Source: a virus (lineage: Duplodnaviria; Caudoviricetes). From it: 64,000 nt of DNA. The notes under the pieces were generated by a model, which did not search any database, was not told the origin of the DNA, and was given only the letters and a program-made list of their open reading frames with translations. Each line of letters begins with the position of its first letter. Position 1 is the first letter of the stretch. The translations under genes and the position numbers were made by a program. Below are positions 25,225 to 54,625 of this stretch, piece by piece. The stretch is from positions 2,469 to 66,468 of the IMG/VR virus record IMGVR_UViG_3300033066_001827. The stretch is one strand, 5' to 3'.

Positions 25225-26361
25225 CACTTTCCAGTCTTGTTCAGATATCAGCTCTTCGCCGCCCACCCTCACTGCAGGCTGAACCCCTGCTCGTTTGAGG
25301 AGATGGGCCACTTTCTTGGACTGAAGCCTGTTGAAGCTGTCGGCGGCTTCTGCCACCTTGGCCGGGTCAAGGAACAACCCCAGAGAGTCTGACAGCTTAA
25401 CACCTGCTGATTTCTCGATCTCACCGAGCACTGACACAGGCAGCTTGGCGATATCGCTTGACCGGTAGACTTCACCAGTGCCGGCTAGCACAACTTTGGT
25501 GTCCGCTGCCCATTTGCAGACAAAGCCTCGAGGGTAGCGATTGATGGGTCTGCACCCTGCAGTCTTGCCTACTTCAGAGTTGTCGAACTTCTCGAACACC
25601 GACACCACCGAAGCAGACAAGTCTTCCGGAAGTAGCCCCTCGAAATCCCTCATGTCCTGGGCCAGCTTGGCAAACCCGGCTGATTCAGTGTCGAGTTTGT
25701 ACAGCCGGGCCACGTTGGAACGGTCTGTTGCAGCCTTGACCACGTCATCTGCGATCAATGTGAATCGCCCAGCATCCAGCTCCAAGTCGTACTTGTCCTT
25801 GTCGGGCAAGTTCAAGTTGAGCGAGGCAAACCGATCAATCAAGTTGGCAGAGGCCTGCTTGAGGGAGTCAGCGTCGAAGGAAGCGCGGTGCTCGGCCAGG
25901 TAGACTTTAGCTACTTTGGCTTCAGCCTCGTTGCGAACTGGTAAAAGCCTTCTTCCGTGCTTTTCCACCAGGTAAGCTTCCGCTGGTATCTCTTCCACAG
26001 GACTCTGTCGTTCCGGCCATTCCAGTTGGAACACGCCCATGGCGTCACGAATACGCGCTTTGGCTTGCTTGACCTCAAATTCACTGTAACCATCCTGGCA
26101 GTTGTCGAGGTACATCGCACTGAGCCACACAGCCGCTTTGGTGTGGAGTGGCAGTGCCTGCTTGCTGGGAAGGGCATAAGAATGACTGCTGACCCGTTCA
26201 GGAGCGCCGAGCTCATCCGGGCTGGCATGCCGAACAAAGTCAGGCACGGAGTAGTCGCTAGCCAGCTTGGCGAAGGTCGCCATCATAGGGTCGTTAAGGT
26301 GGTCGATCGCTTTCATACCCGTCTCCGCAAGGGACGCCTGTTCGAGGAAAATCAATGTCAC
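25210..26361 (-). CDS. Hypothetical head-region protein rich in K-x-A motifs
   Basis: 383 aa; two similar units (YALPSKQALPLHTKAAV / YLVEKHGRRLLPVRNEAEA); lies between the terminase and portal. Confidence 0.6.
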   Translation of the reverse strand: MTLIFLEQASLAETGMKAIDHLNDPMMATFAKLASDYSVPDFVRHASPDELGAPERVSSHSYALPSKQALPLHTKAAVWLSAMYLDNCQDGYSEFEVKQAKARIRDAMGVFQLEWPERQSPVEEIPAEAYLVEKHGRRLLPVRNEAEAKVAKVYLAEHRASFDADSLKQASANLIDRFASLNLNLPDKDKYDLELDAGRFTLIADDVVKAATDRSNVARLYKLDTESAGFAKLAQDMRDFEGLLPEDLSASVVSVFEKFDNSEVGKTAGCRPINRYPRGFVCKWAADTKVVLAGTGEVYRSSDIAKLPVSVLGEIEKSAGVKLSDSLGLFLDPAKVAEAADSFNRLQSKKVAHLLKRAGVQPAVRVGGEELISEQDWKVLAGE

Positions 26362-45998: not shown

Positions 45999-46022
45999 TC
46001 CTGTTGGTGGCTAGTTAGTTTC

Positions 46023-46052
46023 AGCCCGGTCACACGTGGCCGGGCTTTCTTT
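46023..46052 (+). terminator. Rho-independent terminator
   Basis: AGCCCGGTCAC/GTGGCCGGGCT stem plus TTCTTT. Confidence 0.7.
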
Positions 46053-46062
46053 GGAGGTTAGC

Positions 46063-53097: not shown

Positions 53098-53150
53098 GGG
53101 ATAATTATCCCAACATCAGCCCAGGCTACTTCGGCCTGGGCTTGTTTCGT
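53098..53150 (+). terminator. 14-bp palindrome followed by a terminator-like hairpin
   Basis: GGGATAATTATCCC (53098-53111); AGCCCAGGC/GCCTGGGCT stem plus TGTTT. Confidence 0.6.
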
Positions 53151-53175: not shown

Positions 53176-53391
53176 ATGTCTGCTAACGCTCGCAGTGCTC
53201 TCGTGGACCATCTTGTCAATGTCCGGATGAAGAAGGAGTATCAGTCCACATTCCCTCCCGCCGGCAGCGAGTTTGCCGAAGAGGTCGCAGGTATGCTGCT
53301 GCGACTGCACCGGAGTGAAGCTGAGCAGAATGTCATGCAAGCCCTGAACGAGCCCGCTCCCGGGTTGCGAAGCCGAATCCGGCACACCTAA
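53176..53391 (+). CDS. Hypothetical protein
   Basis: 71 aa, AAGGGG RBS. Confidence 0.55.
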   Translation: MSANARSALVDHLVNVRMKKEYQSTFPPAGSEFAEEVAGMLLRLHRSEAEQNVMQALNEPAPGLRSRIRHT

Positions 53392-53394
53392 TCC

Positions 53395-53640
53395 AAAGCC
53401 AAGGTCCTGCTTGGGCCTCAAGTCCTGACCGACGGGTTGGGACAAAGTGCTAACCTGTGGGTGGCGGGCATCATAAACCCAAACTACAGGATGTCTGTCG
53501 AACCTAACTCCATGGTTTAGGCAGGTCGCTCTGCGTGACGCCTCCGTGCTCGTAACACGGGGGGTGTCAGCTAACGCAGAGCGTTATGGGGTCGTCAAGG
53601 TTGACCTCGTGCTGGGTTCGATTCCCGGCGACCCTTTTAC
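53395..53640 (+). ncRNA. Candidate structured RNA ending in a tRNA-like acceptor/T-arm module
   Basis: T-arm CTGGG-TTCGATT-CCCGG; acceptor GGGGTCG/CGACCCT; upstream long hairpin capped by CTCGTAA; further hairpins in 53395-53520. Confidence 0.5.
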
Positions 53641-53659
53641 CCTCACTCAGGAGAAGATC

Positions 53660-53968
53660 ATGGCTCTGAAAGTTACGGTTGTTTTTATCCATCTCAAACA
53701 CCCGTTGATTGAGTTGGTGCGCTCAACCATACCCTGGCTGACTGACGGTGCTAGGGCGATCGGGTTTAATCTTGATAAGCCCGAAGACGCCGAGTATCTG
53801 GATAATTTGGCCGAGCAATTGACCGATTACCATAACGCCTTTACCGGCAAACCAGTTCGTAATTGCCTTGTGTTGAAAGCAGATGAGCAGGGCAACACAA
53901 TCAACATCCCCTTCAGTAACATCGCAGCCTTTGTCATCGGCAGAGAAGGCGAACCCAAACAGGAGTAG
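53660..53968 (+). CDS. Hypothetical protein
   Basis: AGGAG RBS before ATG 53660. Confidence 0.6.
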   Translation: MALKVTVVFIHLKHPLIELVRSTIPWLTDGARAIGFNLDKPEDAEYLDNLAEQLTDYHNAFTGKPVRNCLVLKADEQGNTINIPFSNIAAFVIGREGEPKQE

Positions 53969-53972
53969 TCCA

Positions 53973-54155
53973 GTGCTGCTTTTCGTTCTTGTTGGTATTG
54001 GGTTATTCATCTACTGGCACAGACCGAGCATTGATTTGATCGGTTGGCTCCACGAAGACATTGGCAGGTACTTCGTGGTATGCTTCCTTAGTTCCTCGAA
54101 CTCTAACCGGAGATTCCCATGTACGCAGTCCTTTTCGCTGTCGCCGCTCTTCTGA
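53973..54155 (+). CDS. Small membrane protein
   Basis: AGGAG RBS, GTG start, hydrophobic N-terminal helix. Confidence 0.4.
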   Translation: MLLFVLVGIGLFIYWHRPSIDLIGWLHEDIGRYFVVCFLSSSNSNRRFPCTQSFSLSPLF

Positions 54156-54545: not shown

Positions 54546-54563
54546 ACCAGCGCAGTCCCTCAC

Positions 54564-54588
54564 AAAAGACCGATGTTCGGTCTTTTTT
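54564..54588 (+). terminator. Rho-independent terminator
   Basis: AAAAGACCGA-TGT-TCGGTCTTTTTT. Confidence 0.75.
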
Positions 54589-54625
54589 CGTTTCTATGTC
54601 TCAGTCCTTTTTCAAGGAGTCGCAC

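Follow-up and report, generated by a model that had tools for sequence, protein, structure and literature searches.

What is a structure with the acceptor stem and the T-arm of a tRNA, and with no anticodon arm, doing between two genes of a phage? The element that raises this question lies in a 268-nt spacer between a 71-aa gene and a 102-aa ORF, within a 64-kb stretch of DNA (64,000 nt; called the window in the following, and all positions refer to it unless another contig is named) of a 66.5-kb IMG/VR virus record. The completeness of this record is about 33% (CheckV) and, judged by a related contig of 212 kb, the phage genome probably comprises about 200 kb. Phage tRNA genes are usually viewed as decoders or as replacements for tRNAs cleaved by the host. 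The initial annotation of the locus had proposed a novel tRNA-like RNA, serving as a nuclease decoy, a processing signal or a conformational switch for the downstream gene, or alternatively a decayed tRNA.

Anatomy of the spacer

The features of the spacer and of its borders are given below, with the tRNA-like part treated as RNA.

53176..53391, plus strand: 71-aa gene, always located directly 5' of the element (ORF list)
53392..53526, plus strand: 5' domain of the long form; some four hairpins, the first directly behind the stop codon (fold)
53527..53583, plus strand: long hairpin (about 22 bp, 5-nt bulge), apex CCGUG-CUCGUAA-CACGG, loop 53549-53555
53584..53587, plus strand: spacer UUAU from the hairpin to the acceptor stem (sequence), 4 nt here and 4-8 nt in relatives, with the putative RNase P cut at 53587/53588
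53586..53610, plus strand: rival hairpin 2, AUGGGGUCG-UCAAGGU-UGACCUCGU, which takes the 5' strand of the acceptor and so excludes the acceptor stem
53588..53594, plus strand: 5' strand of the acceptor stem, GGGGUCG, pairing with 53629-53635
53595..53611, plus strand: 17-nt linker UCAAGGUUGACCUCGUG where a tRNA has its D and anticodon arms, with a stub hairpin at 53596-53609 (AGG-UUGA-CCU)
53612..53628, plus strand: canonical T-arm CUGGG-UUCGAUU-CCCGG (sequence)
53629..53635, plus strand: 3' strand of the acceptor stem, CGACCCU; pair 1-72 is G.U in the window
53636..53639, plus strand: tail UUUA with no encoded CCA; U73-U74 in 5/5 lineages
53650..53968, plus strand: ribosome-binding site GGAG (53650-53653) and 102-aa ORF with ATG at 53660 (ORF list); the downstream gene varies by lineage

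The conserved unit comprises 48 nt (53588-53635) and consists of the 7-bp acceptor stem, the stub hairpin and the T-arm. The T-arm, the acceptor strands and their 17-nt connection had been recognized in the initial annotation, as had the missing CCA (UUUUA follows the acceptor stem), the hairpin at 53527-53583 with its apex and the further hairpins upstream; all of them were found again at the same positions, the last in the fold of the spacer. The 13-mer GGGTTCGATTCCC occurs only once in the 64-kb window, and for this reason the likeness to a tRNA is not a matter of chance. The whole 268-nt spacer folds with a z of -4.6 compared with shuffled versions, and the minimum-energy fold of 53520-53640 reaches -60.1 kcal/mol (z = -4.5). 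A model consistent with these data is a three-way junction built from the 7-bp acceptor, the small stub hairpin and the 5-bp T-arm, with neither a D-arm nor an anticodon arm.

The element is present as a single copy in 66 kb. Weak model matches at 46019-46053 and 54562-54591 were considered as further copies and turned out on inspection to be ordinary terminators; another weak match lies at 26283-26318. Intrinsic terminators consisting of a GC-rich hairpin and a T run are located at other junctions of the window, namely at these two positions and at 53118-53150, the latter just ahead of the 71-aa gene.

Relatives, conservation and pairing

The 71-aa gene was used as the anchor in the search for homologous loci. 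It has no match in Pfam or PHROG and its function is unassigned; it closes a conserved block with an RNase T-like exonuclease and a Holliday-junction resolvase. Its homologues in the contigs L046, L047 and L048 show 58-86% identity, and its size ranges from 66 to 71 aa among the lineages. No relative was found in GenBank phages, and none in IMG/VR by protein search or DNA pattern. Two JGI contigs (L002 and L003) were retrieved with the 102-aa protein, L046, which is located on the 212-kb contig, and L047 with the 71-aa protein, and L048/L049 together with a more remote phage (L050/L051) with a 234-aa protein.

In this set the element was found in five lineages at the same position behind the 66-71-aa gene: the window, L002/L003, L047, L046 and L048/L049. 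What comes next depends on the lineage: the window and L002 have the 102-aa gene, L046 a NUDIX hydrolase, L047 a 163-aa gene and L048 one of 52 aa. The mini-tRNA is the sole part common to all five. The remote relatives L050-L056, including L050/L051, are devoid of the element. Relatives carry a 16-nt insertion (ATCCTGCTTGTCTCTC) after window position 54089.

L046 (4911-5223) and L047 (2030-2218) contain a second conserved non-coding element with two hairpins that include CGTTAAAC. It is placed between the inserted gene (NUDIX or 163-aa) and the homologue of the 102-aa gene of the window, ends in a TTTTACC...AGGAG leader as found after the mini-tRNA of the window, and is itself absent from the window.

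A pattern scan of metagenomes yielded three doubtful look-alikes, none of which was counted as a homologue: L004 is part of a coding sequence, L005 neighbours a tRNA array and L006 forms the tip of a palindrome. On the sediment contig L005 (1012-1068, minus strand) a degenerate acceptor/T-arm element with one T-stem mismatch and a 5-6-bp acceptor stem, not called by ARAGORN, is positioned directly 5' of an array of eight tRNAs. The acceptor/T-arm minihelix of L006 (4019-4072) has 22 nt in common with the window, scores 32 bits on model R1 and caps a palindrome whose arms measure about 60 nt, on a 125-kb contig rich in AT.

The part upstream of the mini-tRNA exists in two forms. The long form, with an upstream part of about 195 nt, is found in the window, L046 and L047, which align over the whole spacer. 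Its 5' domain in L046 and L047 shows 67-88% identity with several pairs altered on both sides, and the long hairpin (63-77% identity among the three) retains its stem in L046 and L047 through one-sided and two-sided changes. In the short form of L002/L003 and L048/L049 the 5' domain is replaced, and the stretch from the stop codon to the acceptor stem is a single 8-bp hairpin, which in L002 and L048 occupies the position of the long hairpin and is unrelated to it in length. Every variant carries a strong hairpin ending only 4-8 nt 5' of the acceptor stem, which leaves no room for a separate promoter and would therefore place hairpin and mini-tRNA on one transcript.

The two forms are exchanged as modules. 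In L002/L003 and in wastewater contigs, 203 nt (53386-53588) are swapped for 46 nt ending at the first acceptor base, and in three wastewater RNA-library assemblies 53385 is joined to 53589 with 46 nt in between; the module is thus bounded by breakpoints at the stop codon and at the acceptor's first base. Since the short module of the near relative L002 is homologous to that of the far more distant L048, the upstream module has been exchanged by recombination. Three wastewater metatranscriptome runs contained the short form only; the assembled contigs, which may derive in part from DNA, extend across the element and are uninformative as to RNA ends and expression. Comparison of window 53386-53588 with L002:909-954 gives the picture of a clean module swap, with left flanks of 99% identity.

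These comparisons also bear on two structures described in the initial annotation. The long hairpin had been regarded as an ideal anticodon arm of a tRNA-Thr(CGU), but its apical loop CUCGUAA reads CCAAGAA in L047 and CUGACA in L046, and the hairpin is absent from the short forms; we regard the anticodon-like loop as a chance feature of the window sequence. An alternative pairing of GGTCG (53524-53528) with CGACC does occur in the minimum-energy fold of 53520-53640, whereas the tRNA with an oversized variable region that was derived from it is unsupported: L046 and L047 have GGCCG, which creates a C.A mismatch, and the short forms lack the strand altogether.

No other stretch of the region is as conserved as the 48-nt core, which shows 94-96% identity between the window, L046 and L047. 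For the same trio the identity of the flanking 234-aa and 71-aa genes amounts to 73-83% over all positions and to 48-68% at their near-saturated third codon positions. At the third-position rate about 15-25 differences per 48 nt would be expected, and two or three were observed. As the differences in the core are so far below this expectation, a decaying pseudogene is excluded. The comparison indicates that the mini-tRNA core is under purifying selection. The window, L002, L046 and L047 agree at 16 of the 17 linker positions, and the homologous linker of L048 has an insertion of 9 nt. The conservation between the window and L002 was dropped as a sign of constraint; mismatch-free runs of at least 56 nt occur elsewhere in this pair.

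Covariation among the homologues was examined as well, and both the acceptor and the T stem keep their pairing through changes on both sides. Pair 1-72 changes from G.U in the window to A-U in L002, L046 and L047, the T-stem pair 50-64 is U.G, C-G or U-A depending on the lineage (U.G to C-G in L046), and C53608, which is U in L047, completes there a 5-bp stub (CAAGG-UUGA-CCUUG). The sole change that breaks the fold is a C.A mismatch at acceptor pair 5-68 of L046. The L048 copy (acceptor GGGACGG/CCGUCUC, T-arm CUGGG-UUCGACU-CCCAG) keeps 12/12 pairs, with four acceptor pairs changed on both sides. In the model-fitted alignment of the five copies 59 of 60 cells were paired, a value matched by 1-2 of 500 shuffles, and registers slid by 1-3 columns gave 43-60% pairing; all two-sided changes in these counts come from L048 alone, whose alignment was fitted to the structure, and the other four sequences are close relatives. 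The position in the genome and the alignment of the whole short form support the homology of L048. A closing stem AAAG/CUUU in the consensus fold is invariant and hence uninformative.

Thus the proposal of a tRNA-like RNA that does not code for protein held up, with a core nearly identical beside near-saturated third positions. A decayed tRNA does not agree with a conserved core in which pairing is held through two-sided changes.

Comparison with known tRNA-like RNAs

ARAGORN found no genes, neither tRNA nor tmRNA, and for tmRNA the result was also negative at a relaxed threshold. Rfam returned nothing at gathering scores and nothing at E <= 1 over the window, and the tRNA model RF00005 had no match at E <= 1 on the 66-kb record. 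As in a tRNA, a 7-bp acceptor stacks on a T-stem of 5 bp that is closed by a UUCRANY loop; in contrast to a tRNA, only 17 nt lie between the acceptor stem and the T-arm and there is no cloverleaf. The candidate anticodon loops UCAAGGU and CUCGUAA are without U33 or are not conserved. In its mitochondrial mode ARAGORN offered a 'D-loop tRNA-Thr(CGU)' from the long hairpin of the window only, and this candidate was discarded as the loop is not conserved.

The best sub-threshold Rfam match in the region was the mascRNA-menRNA family (RF01684) with 20.6 bits. The L048 copy matched this model end to end with 38.3 bits (E = 8.5e-5 over 17 kb and 1e-6 locally); both the window and the L048 copy stay below the gathering score of 42.5. 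The layout of these RNAs from MALAT1 and NEAT1, about 50-60 nt with a 7-bp acceptor, one or more reduced middle hairpins and a T-arm, recurs in the full-length alignment of L048 and, with the stub, in the other copies. Like them, the element would sit in a longer transcript directly behind a structure that would protect the 3' end. mascRNA is an RNase P/RNase Z handle, and in MALAT1 the RNase P cut behind the protective structure makes a stable 3' end of the upstream RNA (PMC8457004); in this family the cuts are followed by the addition of CCA. The differences are that the element resides in a phage and not in a vertebrate nuclear lncRNA, which makes common descent implausible, and that the upstream protector is a plain hairpin and not a triple helix as in MALAT1. 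The match to the mascRNA model is a likeness of shape without common descent.

With the tRNA-like domain of tmRNA, including the reduced form of jakobid mitochondria, the element shares the acceptor and T-arm and the missing anticodon arm (PMC3590771; PMC3929946), and also a GG-containing single-stranded stretch in the place of the D-arm. Unlike in tmRNA, where the acceptor joins the ends of a long RNA, carries the pair G3.U70 for alanine identity and is accompanied by a tag frame, the acceptor strands are local and 35 nt apart, pair 3-70 is G-C in 5/5 copies and a tag frame is missing; the 5' domain has a single short ORF, of 9 codons, and L046 does not keep it.

The YrlA of M. smegmatis has a 7-bp acceptor stem; RNase P cleaves this RNA and CCA is added to it (PMC4201824). 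The element resembles YrlA as a non-coding RNA with a tRNA-mimicking module. In contrast to YrlA, which mimics the D- and the T-arm, has a helix that binds Ro60 and lies beside the Ro60 gene, it has no D-arm mimic; no Ro60 (TROVE, PF05731) was matched on the 66-kb record, which represents about 33% of the genome, and no Rfam Y RNA was matched in the region at E <= 10.

The t-elements of plant mitochondria are thought to be cis signals by which RNase P and RNase Z form the 5' and 3' ends of mRNAs (PMC1920247). As in t-elements and in the tRNA punctuation of organelles, a non-decoding tRNA-like structure is located between genes. However, t-elements are organellar, occur at many junctions per genome and are mostly degenerate full cloverleaves, whereas the phage has one highly conserved copy lacking the anticodon arm.

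An intrinsic terminator, with a compact GC-rich hairpin and a run of at least 5 U, was considered too. Behind the acceptor stem stands UUUU, UUCUCUU or UUUCUUCUC, and a terminator scan made no call because the enclosed loop is too large. The genuine terminators at other junctions of the window have 6-7 U. Taken together, the element is not a tRNA, tmRNA, Y RNA or pseudogene; it is a conserved RNA that mimics the upper half of a tRNA and is preceded by either of two modules.

Possible functions of the element

The stacked 7-bp acceptor stem and T-arm are what RNase P measures, and the preferred substrates of RNase Z are CCA-less bacterial tRNA precursors with a U after the discriminator base, a preference that the conserved U73-U74 fits. 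Among the functions considered in the initial annotation a processing signal suits the modelled anatomy best, with decoy and switch as further candidates. Our preferred, still tentative reading is that the tRNA top-half mimic is cut by RNase P and RNase Z and leaves the upstream RNA with a protective hairpin at its end. One transcript running from the 71-aa gene into the variable downstream genes would carry the element, and the tRNA-maturing enzymes of the host would recognise the helix in which its acceptor and T-arm are stacked. The RNase P cut would fall at 53587/53588, and a second one, by RNase Z or another 3' nuclease, directly behind U73. The conserved replication-module transcript would in this way be parted from the variable downstream genes, and a small mini-tRNA would be set free. 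The upstream RNA would then end in a hairpin that shields it from 3' exonucleases and that belongs, in the long form, to a structured tail of 195 nt with a presumed stabilising role.

This handle is favoured because hairpin and mini-tRNA would share one transcript, because the helix is of the type measured by RNase P and because YrlA, MALAT1 and the t-elements provide parallels. The junction is also built differently from others of the window, which are served by ordinary intrinsic terminators. Several observations speak against it. One copy in 66 kb means that the element is not a general punctuation system of this phage, and L050/L051 manage without it. In the long forms the mini-tRNA fold lies 1.8-7.7 kcal/mol above the minimum (nearest-neighbour energy), and hairpin 2 is equal to it or better in the window and L046, although worse in L047 and in both short forms. 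To this is added the C.A mismatch in the acceptor of L046. Finally, the near-total conservation of the linker exceeds the need of a simple shape signal.

It is this excess of conservation beyond the needs of pairing, in the linker and in the core as a whole, that suggests a specific binding partner and hence a role in trans, which we consider possible, if unlikely. The freed mini-tRNA would act as a decoy or sponge for factors that read acceptor and T-arm, or as a handle recruiting such a factor; possible targets are defence nucleases, toxins modifying acceptor ends, the CCA-adding enzyme, EF-Tu and RNase P itself. Y-RNA tRNA mimics handled by tRNA enzymes exist in bacteria and phages (PMC4201824), and a role in trans is compatible with the same processing as proposed for the handle. 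Against a single sequence-specific partner across the group, L048 differs at nearly all positions outside the T-loop and has a longer linker. Moreover, a linked partner gene was not found: neither Ro60 nor a CCA-adding enzyme is present on the record, which covers about one third of the genome. In a wider version the element would be a member of a widespread, undescribed class of phage RNAs that consist of the acceptor/T-arm half only, are excised and CCA-tailed by the host and act in trans by soaking up defence enzymes that hit the acceptor ends or elbows of tRNAs or by gating RNase P, with hairpin 2 timing their release; we think this doubtful.

Hairpin 2 also gives rise to the idea of a two-state RNA switch, in which GGGGUCG would pair either with UGACCUC in hairpin 2 or with CGACCCU in the acceptor, which is followed by a short U run. 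We judge such a switch improbable, and it is just as hard to believe that its state would set cutting or termination versus read-through into the variable genes. Hairpin 2 belongs to the minimum-energy fold of the window and to the consensus fold of the three long forms, in which the two states differ by only 1.4-3.5 kcal/mol, and a double pairing duty would account for the high conservation of the strand. However, in both short forms the mini-tRNA state is better by 4.3-4.4 kcal/mol, and among the relatives L046 shows two mismatches in hairpin 2 and L048 lacks a clear equivalent of it. The one change of hairpin 2 from G-C to A-U, in L047, would be in favour of the switch but is explained equally well by the stub hairpin. 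The U run has only 3-4 residues and was not called by the terminator scan, and neither a ligand nor a sensor is evident.

The element lies exactly at the breakpoints of the mosaic, where 203 nt were swapped for 46 nt up to the first acceptor base, and the genes downstream vary between the lineages. It might thus be a recombination or attachment site at the DNA level, derived from a tRNA gene and located at a cassette-exchange junction, with the RNA shape as a leftover; we give this little credence. The 20-mer GGGTTCGATTCCCGGCGACC is the 3' end of the tRNA-Gly(UCC) of Opitutaceae, and some Opitutaceae genomes contain duplicated 3' fragments of this tRNA, as integrating elements leave them. Yet the match to the host tRNA stops before the last bases (...GCACCA), so that integration would break the tRNA, and a search of 185,579 species genomes for the 23-mer that extends into the acceptor end of the phage itself gave no match. 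The record contains no match to the tyrosine or the serine recombinase family (PF00589, PF00239). A DNA site needs no complementary 5' acceptor strand, yet this strand co-varies in L048.

The 20-mer had 39 matches in total (genome contigs L007-L045), mostly in Opitutaceae and other Verrucomicrobia, and may be taken as a weak hint to a host from this group. On two contigs (L015 and L038; L025 and L035) a full tRNA-Gly is accompanied by a second 3' fragment.

A functionless remnant of a decaying phage tRNA, or a chance look-alike, is very hard to reconcile with the data: it is true that no tRNA program accepts the element and that ARAGORN, when relaxed, makes a poor 'tRNA-Leu(AAG)' from L047 with hairpin 2 as the anticodon arm, but this call arises in one sequence only, with a mismatched acceptor stem and a C at position 33, and the same truncated layout recurs in five lineages as the most conserved stretch of the region, its pairing held by two-sided changes.

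The public 131-aa gene call (protein P0001, L002:939-1334) begins at a TTG in the short-form hairpin and runs through the mini-tRNA. That the element is accordingly the N-terminal coding part of the downstream gene is almost certainly wrong: in the window and L002 no stop interrupts the 102-aa ORF's frame within the element, and the substitutions between these two at 53644 and 53647 are synonymous in this frame, but other genes follow in L046, L047 and L048, where the downstream frames are closed by stops inside or after the element, which is therefore non-coding. In addition, a strong GGAG site is placed 6 nt ahead of the ATG at 53660. Most likely the 131-aa call is over-extended and the real start is the ATG matching window position 53660.

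A strongly conserved, non-decoding half of a tRNA points to a borrowing of the tRNA maturation of the host, either for shaping a transcript or for making a small RNA. If the proposed cuts are confirmed, the phage element would be the counterpart, in a bacterial virus, of the mechanisms of MALAT1-mascRNA and of the t-elements of plant mitochondria. It would then also show why gene callers and tRNA finders misread spacers of this kind, as in the case of the public gene call that runs through the element. Finally, the element marks a hot spot of cassette swapping between related phages and is useful for the annotation of uncultured large phage genomes.
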